Below are positions 1-22,867 of a DNA stretch of 64,000 nt, in pieces. The stretch is from Dehalococcoidia bacterium (GTDB lineage: Bacteria; Chloroflexota; Dehalococcoidia; SM23-28-2; RBG-16-64-32). The first letter of the stretch is position 1. Every line of letters starts with the position of its first letter. The position numbers and the translations under genes are program-made. The stretch spans positions 448,001 to 512,000 of the forward strand of contig CAXXTF010000002.1 in NCBI GenBank assembly GCA_963665775.2, in the 5' to 3' direction. The notes beneath the pieces were generated by a model. The model was given only the letters and a program-made list of their open reading frames with translations. It was not told the DNA's origin and searched no databases.

Positions 1-2448
1 GAGGGACTGAGGGCTATTGATTTCAGCCTCAGCATGGCTGGGGCGGTGGCGACGATGATCCTGGCCGATTACGGCGTTGGCGTCATCAAAGTTGAGCCGC
101 CAGGAGGCGACCCCTTACGGGCGCAGCCAGCCTTCTACGCCTGGAACCGTGGCAAGAAGAGTGTTGTGCTTGACCTGAAGACCGACGCCGGACTGGAGAC
201 AGCACAGCAGCTGGCGGGGCAGGCAGACGTAGTGATGGAAAGCTTTCGCCCCGGCGTCGCTGACCGGCTGGGCATAGGCTACGAGGCGCTGTCCGCGGGG
301 AACCCTCGTTTGGTCTACTGCTCCATTACGGGATTCGGCTCTGCGGGTCCCTATACCAAGCTAAAGGGCTACGATGGCATTGTTGCTGCTAAAGTGGGCC
401 GCTTTCTCCAGTTCAGCGCCATGGCCAAGCGGGAGGGGCCAGTATTTGCAGCAGTGCCTGCGGCTAGCTTTGGAGCTTCTCAGACAGGCCTCCAGGGAGT
501 CTTGGCGGCTCTCTACCTTCGAGAGCGAACGGGCCAGGGGCAGCACGTCCGGACCAGCCTGCTTCAGGCCCTCACCGCCTACGATCTTGGTGATTGGCTA
601 GGCTGGCAACTGGCGCAGCGCAACCCCCAGACGGCGTCACCCGCACCTTCAGGGGGGCGAGGGGGACCCGCCCCTGGCCTCATCTACCTTGTGGCGTGCA
701 CGGCTGATGGTTATTGGCTTCAATTCGCCCAGACCGCACCCCATCTTTTCTTTGCCTGGATGAAGGCTATAGGCCTGGAGCATCTGTATCAGGACGAGCG
801 TTACAGGACATTGCCCAACCTGCCCCCGGAGGAGCGTGTGGCCGTCTGGGAGATGATCCTACGGCGAATGGCCGAGAAGCCCCTGAAAGAGTGGCAAGCA
901 ATTTTCGAGGAGGAACCGGATATCTCGGCCGAGATTGTCCGCACGACAGAGGAGGGCCTGCAGCACCGCCAGATGCTACACAACGGGCAGGTTATCGAGT
1001 CGGAGCAGCCTGATGTAGGTCGCATTAAGCAGGTGGGGCCGCTGGTGCACATGGCGGCCACCCCGGGGGGCGTTCAGGGCCCGGCGCCCTTGCTGAACCA
1101 GCATGCGGAAGAGGTGACGCGCCGGGCATCTGAATCACGTCCGGATATCGAACCAGGGAAGAATGGAGCAGCGATGCCAGCGAGCCCTCTCGAGGGTATA
1201 ACCGTCCTTGAGCTCGCGGGTTACTATGCCGCTCCCTTTGGTACCAACCTCCTTGCCGACCTGGGCGCCCGCGTTATCAAGATCGAGCCGCTGGAAGGCG
1301 ACCCCATGCGATCCATGGGTTCCGATCAGCTTTCCACCAGTACAGTGAAGACCACCCAGGGCAAGGAGAGCATCGCCGTCGACCTGAAGACGCCGGAGGG
1401 CAAAGAGATAGTCCATAAGCTGGTGGCCAGGGCCGACCTCCTCATGCACAATTACAGGCCGGGGGTGCCTGAGCGCCTCGGCATCGACTACCAGACGTTG
1501 AGGGCCATCAATCCTCGACTAGTGTACTTATACGCCGGCTCGTACGGCCCAACGGGCCCTGATGCCAAGCGGCCGGCATACGATCCCACGCCAGGTGCCG
1601 TCGTCGGCAACACACGGTACCAGTACGGGGAGGGTCTTCCGCCCCGGGGCGCAGCCCCGGAGGCCCTTGATGAGTTAAAAAGAGTCTCGGCCCGCCTCAA
1701 CATAGCTAACTGGGGCTTTGGTGATCCAAGCTCCGCCATAGTAGTAGGCACTGCTTTGCTGCTGGGATTGCTGGCGCGGGAGCGTACCGGTAAGGGTCAG
1801 GAGATGATGACGACGATGCTCTGCTCCAATGCCTACACCTCGACCGACTTCCTCGGCTATGACGGTAAGCCGGAGAGGCAGCTGCCGGATGCAGACCTGT
1901 ACGGCCTGGGCCCCATTTACCGCCTCTATAGAGCACGGGAGGGATGGATATTCCTGGCCTGCCTCAAGGAAAAGGAATGGGAAGCTCTGTGCATCGCTCT
2001 CGACAGGCCGGAGCTTAAGGAGGACGCGCGATTCCGTACTCCAACCGCTCGCCGGGGGCATAGCGCCGAGCTCGCGGCCATTCTGGAGGAAGCGTTTAGT
2101 CAGCGCGATGCGGACGGGTGGGAGGCCTATCTGAGCGGCTTCGATGTAGCCTGCGTACGGGCTGACAAGATGCGCTTCGGAGAATTTGCCAACGTAGACC
2201 CGGGGATGGAGGCAAACGGCTTTGTCGCCCAGGTGGAGGCCCCTATCCTTGGCCTCCACCGACGCCACGGCCCGACGGTTCAGCTATCGAAGACCGGTGC
2301 CAGGATGGGGCCGAGTTGCCTGCTCGGCCAGCACACGAGGCAGATTCTGGCCGAGTTGGGCTATGGCGAGGAGCAGACAAAAGGGCTTAAGACGCGGCGA
2401 GTTGTTACCGGGCCGGACGAGACTTGGCTTACGCGGGCTCCACTATGA
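1..2448 (+). CDS. Tandem (two-domain) family III CoA-transferase, CaiB/BaiF; 5'-truncated by the window
   Basis: Frame is open from base 1 (EGLRAIDFSLSMAG). Two CaiB modules: VIKVEPPGGD..NRGKKSVVLDLK..ESFRPGV and LEGITVLEL..LADLGARVIKIEP..GKESIAVDLK..HNYRPGV. Confidence 0.92.
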   Translation, partial: EGLRAIDFSLSMAGAVATMILADYGVGVIKVEPPGGDPLRAQPAFYAWNRGKKSVVLDLKTDAGLETAQQLAGQADVVMESFRPGVADRLGIGYEALSAGNPRLVYCSITGFGSAGPYTKLKGYDGIVAAKVGRFLQFSAMAKREGPVFAAVPAASFGASQTGLQGVLAALYLRERTGQGQHVRTSLLQALTAYDLGDWLGWQLAQRNPQTASPAPSGGRGGPAPGLIYLVACTADGYWLQFAQTAPHLFFAWMKAIGLEHLYQDERYRTLPNLPPEERVAVWEMILRRMAEKPLKEWQAIFEEEPDISAEIVRTTEEGLQHRQMLHNGQVIESEQPDVGRIKQVGPLVHMAATPGGVQGPAPLLNQHAEEVTRRASESRPDIEPGKNGAAMPASPLEGITVLELAGYYAAPFGTNLLADLGARVIKIEPLEGDPMRSMGSDQLSTSTVKTTQGKESIAVDLKTPEGKEIVHKLVARADLLMHNYRPGVPERLGIDYQTLRAINPRLVYLYAGSYGPTGPDAKRPAYDPTPGAVVGNTRYQYGEGLPPRGAAPEALDELKRVSARLNIANWGFGDPSSAIVVGTALLLGLLARERTGKGQEMMTTMLCSNAYTSTDFLGYDGKPERQLPDADLYGLGPIYRLYRAREGWIFLACLKEKEWEALCIALDRPELKEDARFRTPTARRGHSAELAAILEEAFSQRDADGWEAYLSGFDVACVRADKMRFGEFANVDPGMEANGFVAQVEAPILGLHRRHGPTVQLSKTGARMGPSCLLGQHTRQILAELGYGEEQTKGLKTRRVVTGPDETWLTRAPL

Positions 2449-3190: not shown

Positions 3191-4399
3191 ATGCGCAACT
3201 ATCAGTTAGTTTCTGCCGATTCCCACGTGGAGGGGCCGCCCGCGTGGGCGGAGAGGCTCCCCAAGGACCTACGGGACAAAGGTCCGCGCATCGTGCAGCT
3301 AGAAGACGGTGATGCGGTAGTGCTGGGCGACGGTAAGCCCGTCCCTATCACTGGACTGGCGTTGACTGCCGGCCAGAAGTACGCCGAGATCAGACTGCGC
3401 GGCCGTAAATACAGTGAGGAGCCAGGCGCCGGCGTCGACCCACAGCAGCGGGTGGCCGAGCAGGACAAGGACGGGGTTGACGCAGAGAACCTCTTCCACT
3501 CCGTTGGCGCCATCCTGGGCCGAATGGAAGATCCTATCCTGATACGGGAGTCGATTCGGGCCTATAACGATTGGCTATCAGACTTCTGCTCTTACGCCCC
3601 GGACCGCCTCTTCGGCCAGGGCTTCTTGCCTTACACCGGCATCGATGACGCCGTGGCCGAGCTGCAGCGGATAGCGAAGAAGCCTGGCCTGCGCTCGGCC
3701 TACCTGCACCGGTTCCCCTCCGGAGGCGCCACGCCATCACCGGACGACGACAAGTTCTGGGCGGCAGCGGCCGATCTCGGAGTGACGGTGGCTTCCCACC
3801 ACAATTTCGGGGGCAGAGGCATGGGCGGTGAGCAAATTCTGGACGACCCCGCCGCACAAATGTTCGCCTGGATCCTAACCTCCGACATGCCCGTCCCCAC
3901 GATGCCCATCGTCACCATCATCCAGCTGATGCTTACGGGCGTCTTCGACCGCTACCCCAACCTGAGACTGTTCTTCGGCGAGACAGGCATCGGCTGGCTG
4001 CCCTACTGGCTGGAACAGATGGACGACCGCTACGACCGCCACCGCTTCTGGCCAGAGGTGGACCTGCCCCGGCGCCCCAGCCAGTACTTCCGCGACCAGA
4101 TCCACGTCTCCTTCCAAGAAGACCATGCAGGCATCGCTCTGCGCCACCTCATCGGCGTCGACAACATCTGCTGGGCCAGCGACTTCCCCCACGCCGTGGG
4201 CGATTGGCCATATTCGCAGGAGACGGCGGCTCGCCAGTTTCGGGATGTACCCGACGACGAGCGACATAAGATCCAGGCCCTGAATATTTTGGAGTGGCTG
4301 CACATCATCACTCTGCCAGAGAAGGAAGAGATGGCTCGCCAGACGGTGGTGGACCGGGCCCCTGCGGAGCTACTGGCTCGCGGCGCCCGAAGGCTCTAA
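3191..4399 (+). CDS. Amidohydrolase family 2 (LigW/ACMSD-like metallo-hydrolase)
   Basis: SADSHVE, RAYNDWL, ETGIGWLPYW and WASDFPH motifs; upstream AGGAG RBS. Confidence 0.9.
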   Translation: MRNYQLVSADSHVEGPPAWAERLPKDLRDKGPRIVQLEDGDAVVLGDGKPVPITGLALTAGQKYAEIRLRGRKYSEEPGAGVDPQQRVAEQDKDGVDAENLFHSVGAILGRMEDPILIRESIRAYNDWLSDFCSYAPDRLFGQGFLPYTGIDDAVAELQRIAKKPGLRSAYLHRFPSGGATPSPDDDKFWAAAADLGVTVASHHNFGGRGMGGEQILDDPAAQMFAWILTSDMPVPTMPIVTIIQLMLTGVFDRYPNLRLFFGETGIGWLPYWLEQMDDRYDRHRFWPEVDLPRRPSQYFRDQIHVSFQEDHAGIALRHLIGVDNICWASDFPHAVGDWPYSQETAARQFRDVPDDERHKIQALNILEWLHIITLPEKEEMARQTVVDRAPAELLARGARRL

Positions 4400-4463
4400 G
4401 CCGGGCGAGGCCGCTGGCCGGCGAGCCCTTGATCGACCGGGCGCCCGCGGAGTTCACTCCTTC

Positions 4464-4712
4464 GTGGAAATCGCCCGGGACAAGGCGCTGCCCGCCGCTG
4501 GCTTTGGAGCCGACACGGACCAACTGGCCCAGAGTGTGGGGCAGATGCCCGCTTTCGCCAGCGGCATCCAGATTGCCGGGGGCTGGCTGAGGTTCGTGGG
4601 CGGCGGCATCCCCCTGCGGCGGGACGGCCAGTTGTTGGGGGCCGTCGGCATCTCCGGCAGCAGCAGTCAGCAGGAGATCGACTGCGCCCAGGTGGGTCTG
4701 GCTCAGCTATAG
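4464..4712 (+). pseudogene. C-terminal half of a GlcG/HbpS heme-binding protein
   Basis: EIARDKA..GGGIPLRRDGQLLGAVGISG..EIDCA motif. The N-terminal half and an RBS are missing. Confidence 0.7.
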
Positions 4713-4738: not shown

Positions 4739-5485
4739 CTAACCGTTCTCCGCCGCCGCGCTCGGCGCCATTATCGCCCCGACCTTCTTCTCCATGGTCC
4801 CTTTACTCATGGAGCCGATGCGAAACTCGCGGACGATCCCGTCTCTATCTATGAAGAGATGGGTGGGGATGCCGACGATGCGGTAGGTGGCCGCCACGGC
4901 GGTGCTCTGGTCGAGGCCAACCGTGTAGCTGATCCCGACGCGCTCCACGTAGTCCCTCACGGTATCCGCGCCCTCGGCTATGCTTATGGCGATGAGCACC
5001 AGCCCTTCATCCCGGTTCGCTTCATAAACGGTCACCATGTCCGGGCTCTCTGCTCGGCAGGGCGGGCACCAGGTGGCCCAGAAGCTGATCCACACCGGCT
5101 GTCCGCGGAAGTCACTAAGCTGGAATGACTCACCGTCTAGCCCCAGAAGCTCGAACTGCGGCGCCTCCTGGCCGATCCGTGGCGCTGGACCGGTGGCTCC
5201 GGCCGTCAGGGTGATCGCCTCGCTGCCGCCGGCGCCCCCTGGCCGGTCAAAAAACAAGACTAGCCCCACGATGATGAGGCCGACAGCTATGGTCGAGAGG
5301 ATATTCCGCAGGGCGCCTGGCCGCGGCCGAGGGAACGGAGGGCGGGCAAGGATTTCGGCGGCGGATTCGTCCTCCCGCTCAGGAGTGCGCGAGACAGCCT
5401 GTCCCTCTCCATCGATAGCTGCTGACTCCTCGGCCGGTAGTGCTGCCTCGCCGTTGGGTTGGCTGTCGCCTTCGCTGTCAGGCAT
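4739..5485 (-). CDS. resA: ResA/TlpA-family membrane-anchored thiol-disulfide oxidoreductase
   Basis: One TM helix followed by FWATWCPPC; last gene of the ccm system II operon. Confidence 0.88.
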   Translation of the reverse strand: MPDSEGDSQPNGEAALPAEESAAIDGEGQAVSRTPEREDESAAEILARPPFPRPRPGALRNILSTIAVGLIIVGLVLFFDRPGGAGGSEAITLTAGATGPAPRIGQEAPQFELLGLDGESFQLSDFRGQPVWISFWATWCPPCRAESPDMVTVYEANRDEGLVLIAISIAEGADTVRDYVERVGISYTVGLDQSTAVAATYRIVGIPTHLFIDRDGIVREFRIGSMSKGTMEKKVGAIMAPSAAAENG

Positions 5486-6344
5486 AGCTGTGCAAGCCGC
5501 CCAGGAAGTAGTTGCCCCAGAGAGTGAACATGGTAGCGCCGAAGCCCACGATTAGCAGGCCAGCGGCGCCGGCGCCTCGCCACTCTCGCAGTACGCGGGC
5601 GTGCAGGTAGCCCCCGTAGATGAGCCAGGTCACCAGGGCAGCCGTCTCCTTGGGGTCCCAGGTCCAGTAGGAGCCCCAGGCGATATGTGCCCAGACGGCG
5701 CCCAGGATGAGCGTCATCGCCATCAGAGGGAAGCCGATGAGTACAGCCCTGTACGAGATCTCGTCGAGCACCGCTGCCCTGGGCAACCAGCGGACGGTGT
5801 CGTGTCGCTGGAACAGGTAGAGAACGGCGCCGCCGAAGGCCACGGCGAAGGCCCCGTAGGCCAGCACGGCCACGCTGACGTGAACGGTCAGGAGCAGATC
5901 GTTCTGAAGCGCCGGCACCAGCGGCCGGATCTCTGATGGGATGGTTGTCGAGTAGGCCAGCATGCCCAAAGCCACCGGTAGCACCAGCAGGGCCAGCGCG
6001 CGCAGCCTGTAAGCGACCTCGAAGTAGAGGCAGATGATCACGGCGCCCCAGGCGAACGCCAGAGAGAACTCATACATGTTGGAGATAGGGCCGCGCCCGC
6101 TGTCGATCGTGCGGAAGATCAGGGATGCCGACAGGAAGACGAGCGCGTTGATCGTCGCGATGGTGGCGTAGCGACCGGCCGAATCCACGGCACCGAGCGC
6201 TGTCGAGGTCGAGATGGAGCCGCCGTTAGCGGCACCGATCAGCTGGACGCTCCTGGCCCCGACGAGGTTAGCTAGGTAGAGGAACAGCGCCAGGCCCAGC
6301 GCTGCGAATGACGCTACGAAGGCGTATTGCGAAAGCTCATACAT
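5478..6344 (-). CDS. ccsA: Cytochrome c biogenesis protein CcsA/ResC (system II)
   Basis: WAHIAWGSYWTWDPKET (WWD domain) and C-terminal GLHSYA. ATG at 6344 follows GGAGG. Confidence 0.93.
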   Translation of the reverse strand: MYELSQYAFVASFAALGLALFLYLANLVGARSVQLIGAANGGSISTSTALGAVDSAGRYATIATINALVFLSASLIFRTIDSGRGPISNMYEFSLAFAWGAVIICLYFEVAYRLRALALLVLPVALGMLAYSTTIPSEIRPLVPALQNDLLLTVHVSVAVLAYGAFAVAFGGAVLYLFQRHDTVRWLPRAAVLDEISYRAVLIGFPLMAMTLILGAVWAHIAWGSYWTWDPKETAALVTWLIYGGYLHARVLREWRGAGAAGLLIVGFGATMFTLWGNYFLGGLHSYA

Positions 6345-7817
6345 CTTTGGCTCCTCCGCCGGAGTCACCGCTCTCCCGGGCGGTTCCCAGCTCCCCTGCT
6401 ACCCTATCACTTAATCGGTCGAACTCGCGGGATAACGATACGTCTCGTTGCGCCGTCATGCCCAGTCTCACCTCGGTTGTGCCGTCCGGGCCTGGCTTGC
6501 AGAGCGCCCATAGCCGCCGGTGCGGAAAGTAGAAGAGCATGACCAGGCCCAGAAGCATCAGGATACTGGCGATCCAGATAATGTTGATGCCAGGGTTCTT
6601 CACCACCTTGAGGCCGGTGAAACGCCCCTCCCTCTGGAAGGTGAAACTGAGCTCTTCCATCTCTTGAGGCGCACCCTGGGACAGGTTCTGTACGGCCACA
6701 AGCCTGTCGCCGTTCTCCGCGTATACCTCCACCCTCATCTCCCCCGCTGGGACGAGGGGGTCGGTGAGGCCGGATGTAGGCCCGATGACGTTGACGGCTA
6801 GCCCCTGCTCTGGGATGTTGAAGCTTCCGAGAGGGCGACCCTCATCCTTTGTCCGCCCGGCGAGAGGTACGGGCTCACTGAAGAGTGTCTGCCCCGCCGT
6901 GTCCGTCACCTTCATGACCGCTGTCTGACCGAAGAACGATTGGTGGAGGCGGATACCGTCGTAGCTCATCGGGGAGTTGACCCGGATCGTCCCTTCCTTC
7001 ACCGGCACACCCTTATCATAGATCACGACTTCGCTCCGGAAATCTCTAGGTGGCCCTTCCAGGTAGTACTCGTCCACGAAGTGCTCCAGGCTGACCGAGA
7101 TGTCGGTGCCCAGCCCGAGCTCGCTGGTGGCGCCCTCGGATACGATGAACTGGGGGTCGCTGAACCCCCATAGGCTCTCCACAGTGGCGCCGGCCAGGAT
7201 GAGGACGAGGCTTACGTGGCTGAGGAAAGAACCGAATCCGCTGAGGCGGTTCCGGTCCGCATAGATCGCCACCGCGTCGGCGTCCACCTGCGTCTGTACC
7301 CGATAGCGGGTGTCGGAAAGGGCGCCTGTGATGCGCTCCGCTGTCGTGGATACCGGCAGGGCCGGCGTCAGGACGGCGTTGAAGCGGGTGTGCTCAAAGA
7401 AGGCGTCCCCCATACGGGTGCGCGTACCGAACGCGGCGGTCCAGATCCCCTTCCAGCGATCGATCGAGGAGACCAGGATGTTGACGGTTAGCAGTCCCAG
7501 GAGCAGCCGAAACCAGATCGAATGGAAGACGTCGAACAGGAGGAGCGCCTCGAAGACGTCGGTCAGGAAGGGCCCGTATGCGCCGCGGGCGTTCTCCAGC
7601 CACTGAGCGTAGGAAGCTGGGTTGGCCAGAATGGAGGGCGGCACCTGTCTCAGAAGGGTACCGGCCAGCACCGCTGCCGCCAGCAGGAAGATCAGCATCA
7701 GGGCCAGGCGGACAGAGGTGAAGAGGTGCCAGGCCTGGCCTAGAAGGTCTAGCTCCCACGGTTTGCCGGCGGCCTTCTTCGCGGCTCTGCTCGACTCAGC
7801 GCTACCGGTGTCTCCAT
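6337..7817 (-). CDS. resB: Cytochrome c biogenesis protein ResB/CcsB; apparent 1-nt frameshift near 7763
   Basis: WHLFTSVRLAL, DVFHSIWF, HVSLVLIL and VNSPM motifs. The RBS-preceded ATG at 7817 is out of frame with the body. Confidence 0.85.
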
Positions 7818-14406: not shown

Positions 14407-15603
14407 TTAGACAAGAACGCCACGACCCCTGAGCTCGGCGATCTGTTGCTGGCTGTAGCCGATCTCGGCCAGAACCTCATCGGTCTGCTCGCCCTTATCC
14501 GGCGCCGGCCTGGTGGCGACGAACGGGTCGCCTGCAACTTTGATGGCGTTGGCCACCATCTTTATCTTCCCCGCTTTGGGATGATCCTGCTCCACAATCA
14601 TCTCCCTGGATCGGAACAGCTCTGTGCTCTCCAGCTCTCCCAGGGCGTAAAAGGGCGCACCAGCGATGTTGTTCTCAAGGAAAATCTTGGTCCACTCCGC
14701 CTGCGTCTTGGTGCGGAAGAGCTTGATCAACTCCTCCCTTAGCTCCGCGTCGCCGACAGAGCTGTCCATCCGGCTTTCGCTCCAGTCGCCGCGGGTCGCC
14801 AGGTCCGGCCGCCCGACGACCTCACAGAAGTGCAGCCAGAAGTGCTGCTCGATGGCCTGAAGCAGCATGAAGCGGTCGTCCTTCGTCTTGTAGTAGCAGT
14901 ACTTTACTGACACGTCCTCTTCGGGATCTCCCCATCCCCGGCTCTCCTCGTTGAGCACAGACTCCAAGGACCGGTCCAGGGCCATGAGAGCCGCATCAGC
15001 ACAAGAAATGTCTAGATAAGCCCCCTCCCCCGTTGTCTGCGCTTGCAGCAGGGCTCCGAGAATGGCGCTAGCGGCCAACCAGGCCCCGGACGTGGAGCCG
15101 ATTGAGGGCATGGGACGGTGCTGGACATAGCTCCCGTCTTTGAGCTGATACGGCGGCGGAGTGCCGGTGACGGCGTGATAGGCGCCCCCATGGGTGGCCA
15201 GTTGGGCGAAGGGCCCCGTCTGCCCGAAGCCGGTGATGGAGCAGTAGACGATCTTCGGATTGGCGGCTCGCAGGGCCTCGTAGCCCAGCCCCAGCTTGGC
15301 AGAGGCGCCTGGCCGGGCGCTCTCCACGAAAACGTGAGACGATTTCGCCAGGGCGTAGACGACCGCTCTCCCCTCTTCGGTCCTGAAATCGATGCCGACG
15401 CTGCGCTTGCTACGATTGATGCAGGCGAATGAAAGGCGCACGCCGCCCCGGTCCTCAGGCCCGCCCATTCGGAAGTAATCCCCCACCTTTGGCTCCTCGA
15501 CCTTGATGACGTCGGCTCCCATGTCGGCCAGAATCATGGTAGTCAAGGGGCCGGGGATGAGCCTCGAGGCGTCTAGAACCTTGATCCCTTTCAGCAGTTT
15601 CAC
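14407..15603 (-). CDS. Family III CoA-transferase (CaiB/BaiF)
   Basis: LADMGADVIKVEEP, NRSKRSV, ESARPG and APDKGEQTDEVL motifs. Confidence 0.92.
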   Translation of the reverse strand: MKLLKGIKVLDASRLIPGPLTTMILADMGADVIKVEEPKVGDYFRMGGPEDRGGVRLSFACINRSKRSVGIDFRTEEGRAVVYALAKSSHVFVESARPGASAKLGLGYEALRAANPKIVYCSITGFGQTGPFAQLATHGGAYHAVTGTPPPYQLKDGSYVQHRPMPSIGSTSGAWLAASAILGALLQAQTTGEGAYLDISCADAALMALDRSLESVLNEESRGWGDPEEDVSVKYCYYKTKDDRFMLLQAIEQHFWLHFCEVVGRPDLATRGDWSESRMDSSVGDAELREELIKLFRTKTQAEWTKIFLENNIAGAPFYALGELESTELFRSREMIVEQDHPKAGKIKMVANAIKVAGDPFVATRPAPDKGEQTDEVLAEIGYSQQQIAELRGRGVLV

Positions 15604-19165: not shown

Positions 19166-19672
19166 GCTATCTCCTCCCTGGACTCCACCAGGTCAACTTT
19201 AAGTTACCGACACTGCATCCCGGGCAAGCGCGGATCGCAGTGGCTGACAGTGCCGACAAGAATGTTGCCCATGGCTAGTTCATTGTGCAACCCGGCGATG
19301 GGCCTGGCAAATCGTCTCCTTGGGAGCGCGGGCTCGCCACAGCCGTTGCGGAACTTTGCCCGGGAAGGAAGCTTCTTCTGACAGTTGGGGCAAGTCGTAG
19401 ATAGCGTGGTACCAAGTCTAGCGCTTGCCCAGGTTCGATGCCAGGGGTGTGCTGTGTCAGGACATGTGAGACAGGGAAGCGGTTATCAGGGTCTGGCCGC
19501 CGGCGGTCGAGGTAGTAGTCCAGTCCTCCTGAAATCAAGCGTAATCTCGTCGAGCCCGGTCGTCCACATAACTGGAACCGACAGGATCGTCGCACATGGA
19601 CCCACCCCTTGGAATCTGCGTCCATCCAGTCTACAGTTAGTCAATAGCTCGCCAAGAGATAGAGGAGGAGCC

Positions 19673-20719
19673 GTGAAACGCATTCAGGAGGGGATTTTTC
19701 AGATCGTCACCCCTTTCCTGGCGTACGCCCGACACGAGGCCTACGAGCAGCGGGAGGAGCTTGAAGCGCACCCCCGCGTTACCCGCGGCTTACCCTATGT
19801 CCTCCCCTATTTCATCGCCAGCAAGGGCGAGACTATGCTGGTGGATTGCGGCTGGAATACAGATGACGGCTACGCGGCTATTCGGGAGCAGCTGGGGGAG
19901 ATCGGCAGCGACATCTCGGAGATCCGGGATCTCGTGATCACCCATGCCCATCCGGACCACTGCGGCCTCGCCGGTCGCCTCAAGGCTGAGACGGGATGCA
20001 CGGTGTGGATGCACGAGCGAGAGGTCGGCTTTCTGGGCAGCCGACACAACTCTCCGGAGAATCTCCAGGAGGAGATGGACCGCTGGTTCACGCGGCACGG
20101 CGTGCCAGCGGGGGACCGGCCGGAGATAGAGCGCGGGCCGATGCCGATGCCGCACTTCGTGGCGCCAGTCGAGCCCGACCGCCCGGTCAAGGGCGGGGAG
20201 CGGCTGAGCGTGGGCGACTTCGTTTTCGAAGTTATCTGGACCCCGGGACACTCCCCCGGCCACGTCTGTCTGTACGAGCCGAATCACCGGCTCCTGCTGA
20301 GCGGCGACCATGTCTTGCCGGTAATCACCCCCAACGTGAGCCTGCACCCGCAGCAGCGGAACAACCTCCTTGGGGAGTATATCAGCAGCCTGGAGCGGGT
20401 AGCCGAGCTCAAGGTTGACCGCATGCTGCCCGCTCACGAGTGGGACATCGATTGGTTCCAGCGCCGGATACGGGAACTCAAGGATCATCACCAGACGCGC
20501 TTAGAGGCGATGCTAGCGGTGGTGGGATGGGATGGGGTGCTTACAGCCGCCGAAGTGGCCCGCCGTGTGCAGTGGACTACGGGCGGGTATGATAGCTTCT
20601 CCGCCTGGACGAAACGGGCCGCTATCGGCGAGACGTTGGCACATCTCCAGTATTTGGTGGAGCAGGGGCGCCTTGTGGAGGTCGAAGAGGAGGGGTTAGT
20701 CCGCTTTCGGGCCGCCTAG
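19673..20719 (+). CDS. Metallo-beta-lactamase-fold hydrolase with C-terminal winged helix
   Basis: THAHPDHCG, TPGHSPGH, SGDHVLP and LPAH motifs. GTG start after AGGAGG. Confidence 0.9.
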   Translation: MKRIQEGIFQIVTPFLAYARHEAYEQREELEAHPRVTRGLPYVLPYFIASKGETMLVDCGWNTDDGYAAIREQLGEIGSDISEIRDLVITHAHPDHCGLAGRLKAETGCTVWMHEREVGFLGSRHNSPENLQEEMDRWFTRHGVPAGDRPEIERGPMPMPHFVAPVEPDRPVKGGERLSVGDFVFEVIWTPGHSPGHVCLYEPNHRLLLSGDHVLPVITPNVSLHPQQRNNLLGEYISSLERVAELKVDRMLPAHEWDIDWFQRRIRELKDHHQTRLEAMLAVVGWDGVLTAAEVARRVQWTTGGYDSFSAWTKRAAIGETLAHLQYLVEQGRLVEVEEEGLVRFRAA

Positions 20720-20780
20720 GCAGGACGGCGGCAGGCCAGAGCCTCGGGGTTCTGACCCAACAGGGCTATGCTAGGCAGGT

Positions 20781-21293
20781 ATGATGAACAAACTACAGCA
20801 AGGCGATCGGTTCCCTGACCTTACTCTAAACCTCCTCGGCGGCGGCAACGTCCAAATTCCAAACGACATACCTGGCCGATACGCAGCGCTCCTCTTCTAC
20901 CGCGGTCACTGGTGAACGTACTGTATGCGGCAGTTAGCCGCGTGGGATGAAAAGAAAGCCGAACTGGAGGCTCTCGGCGTGACGATCTACGCGGTCAGCG
21001 TAGATACAGTCGAGCAGGCGCAAGAGGTTGCTGGTCGCGGTCTAACCTTTCCGGTCGCCTACGGTGCCACGAAGGAAGTAGCCGACCTCATCGGAGCGTG
21101 GTGGCAGGCGGAACGAGGCTTCATTCAGCCAGCGGAACTCCTGCTGGATGGCGATGGGATTGTCCTGGGGTCGATGTACGCGTCAGGGCCTGTGGGTAGA
21201 ATGGGGGCTGACGAAGCTGTGAGGCTGATCACGAGCCGCGAGCGTCGAAGAGCTGAGCAAGAGCAGGTCCTGTGGCCCGAGGACGTACGTTAG
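20781..21293 (+). CDS. Peroxiredoxin-like (AhpC/TSA) selenoprotein; Sec45 in a UxxC motif
   Basis: Continuous frame MMNKLQQGDRFPDLTL..LLFYRGHW-TGA-TYC-MRQL. The TGA at 20913-20915 sits at the first Cys of the family's FYRGxWCPxC motif. Confidence 0.88.
20925..20943 (+). promoter_or_regulatory. Putative bacterial SECIS hairpin
   Basis: ATGCGGC-AGTTA-GCCGCGT stem-loop. The loop starts 16 nt after the UGA and has G at loop position 2. Confidence 0.65.
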
Positions 21294-21322
21294 TCAGCCG
21301 TAGTGTGTGGTAGAAGGGGCAC

Positions 21323-22867
21323 CTAGCTCGCCTCCACAGTCACTACGCCCGTGGTGCCATCCACGGTCACCGGCGCGCCATTCGGGATGCGCGCTGTGGC
21401 GTCTTTCGTCCCAACAACAGCAGGAATGCCGAATTCCCGCGCAACGATAGCACCATGGGATAGGGCGCCACCCGCATCCGTGACTATCGCGCCTGCGAGG
21501 CACAGGTACGGCGTCCACGGTGATGTAATGATCGGACAAACCAACACCTCGCCGTCGGCGAGGTGTGGAGCCTCGTTAAGGGATTTGACCACTCGAGCTA
21601 GCCCGCGATAACTTCCAGGCGATGCCGACGTGCCGTGGAGCATTATCGCTTCCCCAGCGCTCGTCTGGCCTGCACTTGTCTGACCTTCCGCTTGCCGTGA
21701 TGTCCCCAATACTCGCGGAGGAGTGGCAGCCCGGTATTCTACCTGCGCGGTACGGCGGCTAGCGACTTCTTTTCGACTGAGCGGATCTTCCCCTTCGAGA
21801 ACTTCCAGAAGTTCCCCCCGAGTGTAGTAAAAAACGTCATCAGCTGAAGCTAATTTACCGCGCTCCACGAGATGTGTTCCGATTGACAGCCAACGAGCGC
21901 GGGAGGCGGAAAATAGGCGTTGATCCACTAACAAATTGTGGTCCTCTAGATTAGGCAGGAACTGTTGTGCCATCTCCATCAGCGGAATCAGGGCTGCGGC
22001 AGCAGGATCAGAAGCCGCTCTGGCCTTTAGCTCACCCTCCAGACGCACCCGCTGCTGGACTTGCCGGTCTGCTGCATCCTGGGGGCTTAGATCGTCTTCC
22101 TGTGCCGCATAGGCCTTGATCAGCCCCATCGGGATGGACGGATCCTCACGCCACGTGGGCAGGTCCTGTTGGCCTATATTCGTGGTGTGTCCGAACGCTT
22201 CCATGACGGAGACCAAGCCATCTCGAAACTTCTGGGCGGCAGGAGAGTCGATAGGAAGATCATCGGACTGACCCACGGCCTCGAACAGCCCGCTGTCCGC
22301 CCGCAATAGGCGACTAATGTCCCACAACATGATGGCCCGGTCGAGTGACCGGTTAGGGAATCCTTGCAGGAGCGCCAAGGCGTCCGCACGGCGGTCTTCG
22401 CCGAACCGATCGATGTAGGCATCTACGAAGCGCTCAACGGCGATTCGGGCAGCGATTACAGCGGTCCGATGCACGCCGGCGAACACTCGCTGGAAGTCGG
22501 CCTCAAGCTCCGCCAGGGTTGTTGCCCATTTCCCCGAGTTGACGCTCCCCGGCTCAAGCTCCGTCAAGCGCTTGGCCAGTACCTCAACCTGAGGAAGCCA
22601 TTCATGCCGCCACTGAGTCAGGGAGGCGGCAGAGTCCGGCGCCGTGACCTCTCCAAAAGGGTGGGCGGCCTCGGAGCGGATGTAGGTATAGCCGTTGACG
22701 CGGATCGCCCGTGGCGGCGCCCGGGACTCGCCAGCTGGGCCGCCAGCGAGCGTCGGCGACGTCGCAATCAGGGGTGTCTGGGAGGCTGGCCCGTGCTCAT
22801 CCTCGTAGAGCCACGTATACTCCTCATACGTTGGGTCGGGAAGTTCGAATTGTACTTTCGCTGACAT
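21323..22867 (-). CDS. PEP-utilising enzyme mobile (phospho-His swivel) domain protein without an ATP-grasp domain
   Basis: C-terminal TDAGGALSHGAIVAREFGIPAVVG..VDGTTGVV; helical central region. Confidence 0.85.
   Translation of the reverse strand: MSAKVQFELPDPTYEEYTWLYEDEHGPASQTPLIATSPTLAGGPAGESRAPPRAIRVNGYTYIRSEAAHPFGEVTAPDSAASLTQWRHEWLPQVEVLAKRLTELEPGSVNSGKWATTLAELEADFQRVFAGVHRTAVIAARIAVERFVDAYIDRFGEDRRADALALLQGFPNRSLDRAIMLWDISRLLRADSGLFEAVGQSDDLPIDSPAAQKFRDGLVSVMEAFGHTTNIGQQDLPTWREDPSIPMGLIKAYAAQEDDLSPQDAADRQVQQRVRLEGELKARAASDPAAAALIPLMEMAQQFLPNLEDHNLLVDQRLFSASRARWLSIGTHLVERGKLASADDVFYYTRGELLEVLEGEDPLSRKEVASRRTAQVEYRAATPPRVLGTSRQAEGQTSAGQTSAGEAIMLHGTSASPGSYRGLARVVKSLNEAPHLADGEVLVCPIITSPWTPYLCLAGAIVTDAGGALSHGAIVAREFGIPAVVGTKDATARIPNGAPVTVDGTTGVVTVEAS

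Follow-up and report, generated by a model that had tools for sequence, protein, structure and literature searches.

We analysed a 64,000-nucleotide stretch of a Dehalococcoidia genome (contig CAXXTF010000002.1, positions 448,001 to 512,000; hereafter the window, whose own numbering is used throughout), the plus strand of which carries at 20781..21293 a predicted selenoprotein coding sequence (CDS) for a peroxiredoxin-like (Prx-like; AhpC/TSA fold) U-x-x-C oxidoreductase. The CDS extends from an ATG at 20781 over 170 codons to a TAG stop at 21291-21293, and its codon 45 (20913..20915, plus strand) is an in-frame TGA, proposed to be read as selenocysteine (Sec), which is conserved among relatives and replaced by Cys in distant homologues. 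This codon opens the redox motif U45-T46-Y47-C48 (20913..20924, plus strand), which directly follows an F-Y-R-G-H-W stretch conserved in an alignment of 81 sequences. A hairpin of the selenocysteine insertion sequence (SECIS) type is located inside the CDS at 20924..20944 on the same strand.

A redoxin gene interrupted by an in-frame TGA

Translation table 11 divides the locus into two open reading frames (ORFs) in one shared frame, 20781..20915 (44 aa, ended by the TGA) and 20925..21293 (122 aa). When TGA is instead translated as U, a product of 170 residues is obtained that includes F-Y-R-G-H-W-U-T-Y-C, and this product matches the Pfam AhpC-TSA profile with an E-value of 1.4e-20 and 73.9 bits (cut-off 26). 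The match spans the TGA unbroken, with residues 8-128 corresponding to profile positions 2-121 of 124; scored separately, the two ORF pieces reach 14.1 and 37.0 bits. Codon-level comparison over all sequence pairs revealed that, over the 39 codons preceding the TGA, synonymous changes account for 49.5% of the codons that differ (10.0% and 7.2% in the shifted frames), and downstream of it for 37.8% (10.0% and 8.7%). This same-frame synonymous excess on both sides of the TGA indicates purifying selection on both halves. The initial annotation had joined the split ORF into one redoxin gene, and the domain match across the TGA together with coding constraint in the same frame on either side bear this out: 20781..21293 is a single gene interrupted by TGA.

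The sample of related loci was drawn from a scan in which each species contributed a single genome; of the 337 relatives found, the best 80 loci were kept (59-75% identity), and together with the window sequence these form the 81-sequence alignment (A2). By label, 77 of the 80 derive from Dehalococcoidia, Chloroflexota or SAR202 metagenome-assembled genomes, the others being Entotheonellaceae (L015), ‘bacterium’ (L030) and ‘uncultured bacterium’ (L059). The aligned codon is TGA in every one of the 80 loci (77 by pattern and 3 by direct reading), tblastn matches continue through it, and the corresponding alignment columns, T13, G14 and A15, are invariant in all 81 sequences.

Database proteins gave a complementary picture. 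Of 779 candidates from a word-indexed protein search, 628 qualified as homologues at E <= 0.001. Among the best 120 of the 628, 96 measure 104-134 aa and correspond to the C-terminal 49-72% of the query, and the remaining 24 are 164-240 aa long. All 11 of the short homologues that were aligned begin right behind the UxxC motif, nine at the equivalent of M49 (M-R-Q-L-A) and two three residues later; one short homologue, of 116 aa, carries the NCBI name ‘redoxin domain-containing protein’. Gene callers thus either split the gene or begin it at Met49, and with 96 of the best 120 homologues N-terminally cut, the active site is absent from most public protein records of the family, which gives the corrected gene model its value for annotation. 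Among 19 full-length homologues aligned, 16 possess Cys at the TGA position (W-C-P-Y-C in 14, W-C-R-H-S in 2), identity to these Cys-type forms being about 50%, and three possess Trp. The latter are JGI proteins entitled ‘peroxiredoxin’, in which the Trp is probably a spurious residue resulting from translation of TGA with a Trp-reading code. The initial annotation had placed the TGA at the position of the first Cys of a CxxC motif and had proposed that homologues be aligned for Cys/TGA pairing; with TGA in 80/80 loci and Cys in 16/19 full-length homologues, the alignment agrees with that placement and exhibits that pairing. Judged from these comparisons, the conserved TGA is not an accident.

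These data also bear on whether the locus might represent a pseudogene or a sequencing error, in which a nonsense mutation has destroyed a Cys codon (TGC or TGT) and translation yields no full-length protein. One base separates TGA from either Cys codon, and the machinery for Sec insertion was not seen in the window. However, TGA occupies the aligned codon in all 80 loci, which come from separate genome records, purifying selection operates in one frame on both halves, and a conserved, covarying hairpin is found where a SECIS must sit (see below). Furthermore, a 98%-identical database protein, present on two contigs, is also called from the Met just behind the motif. A pseudogene or sequencing error therefore appears extremely improbable.

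The redox motif itself varies in a restricted manner among the 81 Sec forms, comprising UPYC (59), USYC (11), UGYC (6), UTYC (2), and UPCC, USHC and UWYC (1 each). Cys at +3 is accompanied by Tyr or His at +2 in 80 of the 81, the remaining one being UPCC, and the residue following Sec is P in 60, S in 12, G in 6, T in 2 (the window and L035) and W in 1. The Thr after Sec, which had been singled out initially as atypical, is indeed rare (2/81), but carries little weight: the position is freely variable, so that Thr represents a minor variant.

The hairpin downstream of the TGA

The hairpin at 20924..20944 consists of 8 bp (6 Watson-Crick and 2 G-U), with a minimum free energy (MFE) of -12.4 kcal/mol for the 23-nt segment folded, the same 23-nt stretch being used across the 81 sequences. 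Its apical loop, AGUUA (20932-20936, plus strand), starts 16 nt downstream of the UGA, and the part conserved in the 81-sequence alignment is a 5-bp stem core in which 20927-20931 pair with 20937-20941 on the same strand. A 7-bp hairpin with this loop and spacing had been described before our analysis; its seven pairs were recovered at 20925-20943, and the MFE fold extends them to eight.

According to the accessible text of PMC13188914, the bacterial SECIS model comprises an apical loop of 3-9 nt, a stem of 4-16 bp, a UGA-to-loop spacing of 16-37 nt, a G at loop position 1 or 2, in most cases with G or U next to it, and an MFE of <= -7.5 kcal/mol. Applying these published constraints by hand, we found that the window hairpin falls within every one of them (a loop of 5 nt with G in second place and U after it, a stem of 8 bp, a spacing of 16 nt, -12.4 kcal/mol), which upholds its earlier description as SECIS-like as far as the model is set out there.

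Conservation of the element was examined across the 81-sequence alignment. The core, C-G-G-C / G-C-C-G, is nearly invariant, and at its closing pair (columns 27 and 41) 58 sequences have G-C and 15 have U-A, the pair being broken in the other 8. An inner stem pair is changed to U-A in one sequence (L047), another (L023) pairs in a shifted register, retaining 5 bp of stem around a 4-nt loop, and two (L034 and L046) contain a single internal mismatch in the stem. Loop sequences are similarly restricted, with AGUUG in 59, AGUUA in 16, AGUU in 3 and another fold in 3. For the 7-pair helix a covariation score of 0.133 was obtained, compared with 0.062 +/- 0.009 for shuffled alignments, none of 500 of which reached 0.133. 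When the pairing partners were slid by 1-3 columns the score was at most 0.066, and the proportion of paired cells, 82.9% in the 7-pair helix, was 17.7-45.1%. We give these slid controls, together with the codon analysis that follows, more weight than the shuffles, because kin sequences can beat shuffles without any structure being present.

Codon usage in the hairpin region is unusually constrained compared with other conserved columns for the same amino acids: codon entropy is 0.32 bits for R50 (1.33-2.29 for other conserved Arg columns), 0.00 bits for Q51 (0.75-0.80 for Gln), 0.72 bits for L52 (1.15-2.09 for Leu) and 0.20 bits for A53 (0.94-1.84 for Ala). L52 is encoded only by TTG or TTA, whereas CTG is the commonest Leu codon elsewhere, and the drop in synonymous variation coincides exactly with the hairpin codons. 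In the protein sequence, 81/81 Sec forms retain RQL and 78/81 retain RQLA, compared with 7 and 4, respectively, of the 16 Cys forms. Taken together, these patterns mark the hairpin as a conserved, covarying candidate SECIS element.

RNAalifold proposed a second small helix that includes the UGA (columns 11-14 with 19-22), but no pair in it is changed on both sides and it was not counted. An Rfam scan of the whole window at gathering thresholds identified two tRNAs only and no family on the hairpin; in a permissive scan of 20700-21400, two chance matches only (E 1.7 and 8.5) were obtained, none of them for the hairpin.

Predicted active site and selenocysteine decoding

To place the read-through product among known folds, we considered family profiles, a structural model and remote alignments to solved structures. 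No NCBIfam model names the window protein; the best, PrxU (NF040737), reaches 37.8 bits where its cut-off is 270, and ResA (NF002854) reaches 31.5 bits where it is 170. The AlphaFold2 model has a mean predicted local distance difference test (pLDDT) score of 88.3 and a predicted template modelling (pTM) score of 0.84, and the nearest solved folds to it are AhpC, Prx6 and Bcp (TM-scores 0.70-0.78, about 20% identity). Residues 135-139 (about 21183-21197) are the only part of the model with pLDDT < 50 and lie inside the family's most conserved motif, Y-A-S-G-P-V-G-R-M, which may form a flexible functional loop. This motif belongs to a C-terminal part of its own that is conserved in the Dehalococcoidia group, G-S-M-Y-A-S-G-P-V-G-R-M followed by a helix with R-E-R-R-R; in the model an extra C-terminal helix spans residues 143-164. 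The N-terminus, MMNKLQQGD, shows no hydrophobic stretch, and the protein was accordingly taken as cytoplasmic.

Remote matching of a profile of 46 family members to solved structures identified Bcp4 (3hjp, 2.9e-9) and the Prx6-type 6q5v (5.8e-9), as well as ResA-type structures from 9.5e-8 (3c71) to 6.5e-5. In the 6q5v alignment, Sec45 corresponds to the Thr of an F-T-P-V-C stretch, Cys48 to its Cys and Arg41 to its Pro, and the invariant Pro117 corresponds to the Arg of V-R-A-V-F-I-I-D. We take the 6q5v residues aligned to Sec45, Cys48 and Pro117 to be the peroxiredoxin catalytic Thr, peroxidatic Cys and catalytic Arg, respectively. Peroxiredoxins proper are defined by a PxxxT/SxxCp motif and a catalytic Arg. 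The window protein instead has Sec45 at the Thr/Ser position and Arg41 at the Pro position, and Pro117 in place of the catalytic Arg, the last with moderate confidence as it derives from a single remote alignment. A CxxC motif combined with a Pro of the Pro117 type presumably marks a thioredoxin (Trx)/ResA-type oxidoreductase. On this assignment of the target residues, a Prx-like scaffold would carry the active-site layout of a Trx/ResA-type CxxC oxidoreductase, Sec being the exposed nucleophile. The name ‘peroxiredoxin-like’ given in the initial annotation thus holds for the fold, with its AhpC/TSA domain and Prx structural neighbours, but not for the catalysis, since the Thr and Arg positions of peroxiredoxins are otherwise occupied.

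The same comparisons leave some room for a selenoprotein that is a true peroxidase, in which peroxide would oxidise Sec45 to a selenenic acid to be resolved by Cys48. Selenols react fast with peroxides, as in glutathione peroxidases, and both the best structural neighbours (AhpC, Prx6 and Bcp) and the best profile matches (3hjp and 6q5v) are consistent with this alternative. The shifted catalytic positions in the 6q5v alignment (Sec45 at Thr, Pro117 at Arg, Arg41 at Pro) and the matches to ResA structures argue against it, as does the literature name for such proteins, thiol:disulfide oxidoreductase, which in the accessible text of PMC13188914 and PMC1794560 is itself given by prediction only. 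We consider peroxidase activity possible but unlikely.

As a thiol:disulfide oxidoreductase, the gene would operate as follows. During translation UGA45 would be recoded as selenocysteine, with the hairpin, which starts 9-11 nt downstream and presents its G-U-containing loop 16 nt after the UGA, acting as a SECIS that recruits SelB with Sec-tRNA(Sec); the SelB interaction is predicted from the SECIS model, and Sec insertion in the window organism from sequence comparison. The product would be a cytoplasmic, stand-alone thioredoxin-fold oxidoreductase in which Sec45 provides the exposed nucleophilic first position of the Trx-type CxxC motif and Cys48 its resolving partner. The enzyme might cycle between the selenol/thiol state and an intramolecular Sec45-Cys48 selenenylsulfide, reducing a disulfide or, less certainly, a peroxide or sulfenic acid, and being re-reduced by thioredoxin or a low-molecular-weight thiol.

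The capacity for Sec decoding is suggested by relatives of the window organism. Two of the 80 related loci contain a tRNA-Sec with anticodon TCA (L034 14558-14652 and L046 14734-14828, both on the minus strand), called by ARAGORN as well as by Rfam RF01852 (70.3 bits against a gathering threshold of 47). Both are separated from the selenoprotein gene by ~4.5 kb and have asnS, glnS and hflKC as neighbours; around the L034 tRNA-Sec the ORFs are glnS, asnS and hflKC, with no sel genes among them, and the proximity of tRNA and selenoprotein gene in these loci looks incidental. For a further relative, the isolate named in the record of locus L075, Table 2 of the BSepDB paper (PMC13326102) lists 46 selenoprotein genes, a count that puts it within that table's ten richest bacteria. 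With these relatives as support, the window organism probably decodes Sec as well.

A different reading of the UGA, as Trp, Cys or Gly, would require either near-cognate suppression or a lineage-wide reassignment of TGA. The three full-length database proteins with W at the position could be cited in its favour. Yet TGA serves as an ordinary stop in the window, terminating 10 of the 30 genes backed by a family match (TAG 12, TAA 8), and in several genes that end in TGA the profile is matched right up to its final positions, for example in CcsB (252/252) and HemA (415/416). TGA is therefore not reassigned in the window, in agreement with the earlier view that no global code change is involved. 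Plain suppression would moreover have no need of a hairpin that follows SECIS rules, the homologues carry Cys rather than Trp, as expected for a Sec/Cys pair, and tRNA-Sec and the selenoprotein-rich isolate occur among the relatives. Insertion of a standard residue is thus very unlikely.

Several observations nonetheless weigh against recoding to Sec and the redox function proposed for the product. Within the 64-kb window there is no tRNA-Sec, an NCBIfam scan of 50 window ORFs identified no SelA, SelB or SelD, and neither the window nor the 80 loci gave a tblastn match to SelA, SelB or SelD of E. coli K-12 at E <= 1e-5. Nor did a second selenoprotein gene emerge in the window, no TGA-spanning Pfam domain being detected in the 50 scanned of 115 TGA-bridging candidates, a set from which those seemingly antisense to long genes had been removed. 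The folding energy of the hairpin is unremarkable (z = -0.87 for 71 nt), with 37 of 200 shuffles folding equally well or better; in the 23-nt stretch 19 of the 81 sequences form just 5 bp, and 3 of the 81 miss the -7.5 kcal/mol limit that the other 78 reach. As fold energy alone is not exceptional, the case for the hairpin is built on its conservation. Finally, the redox chemistry, including substrate and reductant, is predicted from motif and fold. Considering both sides, we find it very probable that the gene is a genuine selenoprotein gene of an ordinary kind, belonging to the ‘Prx-like thiol:disulfide oxidoreductase’ family (PF00578, UxxC).

Elsewhere in the window, an ORF with an HbpS/GlcG-like domain (4125-4709, plus strand) has an in-frame TGA upstream, at 4281. 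Its Pfam match covers residues 114-192 (profile positions 49-127 of 128) and stops short of the TGA, and so provides no sign of a second selenoprotein there.

Genomic context and comparison with known systems

The selenoprotein gene is preceded on the same strand, across a 61-nt gap, by an MBL-fold hydrolase gene (19385-20719, plus strand), and is followed by a convergent gene for a PEP-utilising enzyme (21323-22867, minus strand). Neither neighbour is shared with the other loci. A scan for promoters and terminators found no promoter-like site and two terminator-like sites, both on the minus strand. Among relatives, the commonest neighbour is a gene with a DinB/MDMPI_N domain directly downstream on the same strand (27/81 loci). 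It encodes a protein of about 272 aa (e.g. L026 10527-11363, L059 5508-6338) that also contains SCP2/MDMPI_C, MDMPI_N being the N-terminal domain of mycothiol maleylpyruvate isomerase; no tblastn match to it was found in the window. This gene may encode a thiol-dependent partner of the selenoprotein. The largest neighbour cluster (44 loci) was taken to comprise mostly antisense ORFs overlapping the selenoprotein gene and was discarded.

Also observed in 10 loci, 1.5-3.5 kb downstream, was a molybdopterin oxidoreductase of about 950-1020 aa (e.g. L001 11675-14734, minus strand) of the formate-dehydrogenase type, with 2Fe-2S, 4Fe-4S, molybdopterin and dinucleotide-binding domains. It was called intact and is therefore apparently not interrupted by TGA. 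The window itself contains at 4739-7698 (minus strand) a cytochrome c maturation cluster with a ResA-like thiol-disulfide oxidoreductase, CcsB and ResB. The ResA-like gene (4739-5485) is of the Cys type, with W-C-P-P-C and no in-frame TGA, and its product gives a weak match to WAxxUGC_long, an NCBIfam model for selenoproteins (64.9 bits, cut-off 300). At 34-2448 (plus strand), an 804-aa ORF comprises tandem family-III CoA-transferase (formyl-CoA transferase-like) regions at residues about 1-372 and 384-701 and looks like a fused duplicate; a single-domain family-III copy is found at 14407-15603 (minus strand).

Prx-like UxxC selenoproteins, which the initial annotation correctly treated as known, have been on record from 2005, starting with the Sargasso Sea and Global Ocean Sampling (GOS) studies (PMC2398784, PMC13188914). 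In GOS data, Table 2 of PMC2398784 lists ‘Prx-like 1’ (pfam00578, UxxC) with 225 Sec and 2,740 Cys sequences. In the accessible text of PMC13188914 the ‘Prx-like thiol:disulfide oxidoreductase’ (PF00578, UxxC/UxxU) figures as a high-confidence prediction, with WP_010940744.1 as the reference protein of the family, and that of PMC1794560 counts this family in 8 analysed genomes. Dehalococcoidia were likewise already placed among the selenoprotein-richest bacteria (PMC13326102). In the literature on bacterial, Dehalococcoidia and SAR202 selenoproteins we did not find the present subgroup described, and BSepDB or supplementary files may well list it. The kind of protein is thus long known, and the window gene adds a member to it, the subgroup itself possibly being already in BSepDB. 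Knowledge of selenoproteins in general is left unchanged, while the window organism is marked as a likely Sec-decoding relative among Dehalococcoidia. A more far-reaching interpretation, that the Dehalococcoidia group represents a distinct, Sec-only Prx-like subfamily, marked by its invariant Y-A-S-G-P-V-G-R-M loop and a basic C-terminal helix, which acts with a DinB/MDMPI-type partner in a Chloroflexota-specific low-molecular-weight-thiol redox or detoxification system, is in our estimation decidedly doubtful.

Compared with Prx-like 1 selenoproteins, as far as the accessible sources describe them, the window protein is alike in its PF00578 domain (73.9 bits against a cut-off of 26), in Sec at the first position of UxxC (here U-T-Y-C), in Cys homologues being far commoner, in a SECIS following the UGA, and in a function that is predicted; this placement was made by domain, motif and description. 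The Dehalococcoidia group differs in its own conserved C-terminal part, and no NCBIfam model names it. With PrxU (NF040737, TxxU) it shares the AhpC/TSA fold and the status of a selenoprotein. TxxU is given in PMC2398784 as the motif of Sec-containing true peroxiredoxins, and, to the extent that this source sets it out, the Sec of PrxU is at the peroxidatic position after Thr, whereas the Sec of the window protein is three residues earlier and Cys is at the peroxidatic position.

The ResA/TlpA/StoA proteins (3c71, 1st9, 3erw; matches 9.5e-8 to 2e-5) resemble the window protein in a W-C-x-x-C type motif and a Trx fold with an N-terminal extension. These proteins are membrane-anchored and extracytoplasmic, whereas the window protein lacks a hydrophobic N-terminus and has the extra C-terminal helix 143-164. 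As for the hairpin, it agrees with bacterial SECIS elements (the bSECISearch consensus and the E. coli fdhF type) in being a stem-loop directly 3' of the UGA within the CDS, with a small apical loop containing G then U and an MFE below -7.5 kcal/mol. It differs in that its 16-nt spacing is at the lower limit of the 16-37 range and its conserved part is just a 5-bp G+C-rich stem. The locus contributes a well-documented case of a small, highly conserved, putative in-frame SECIS.

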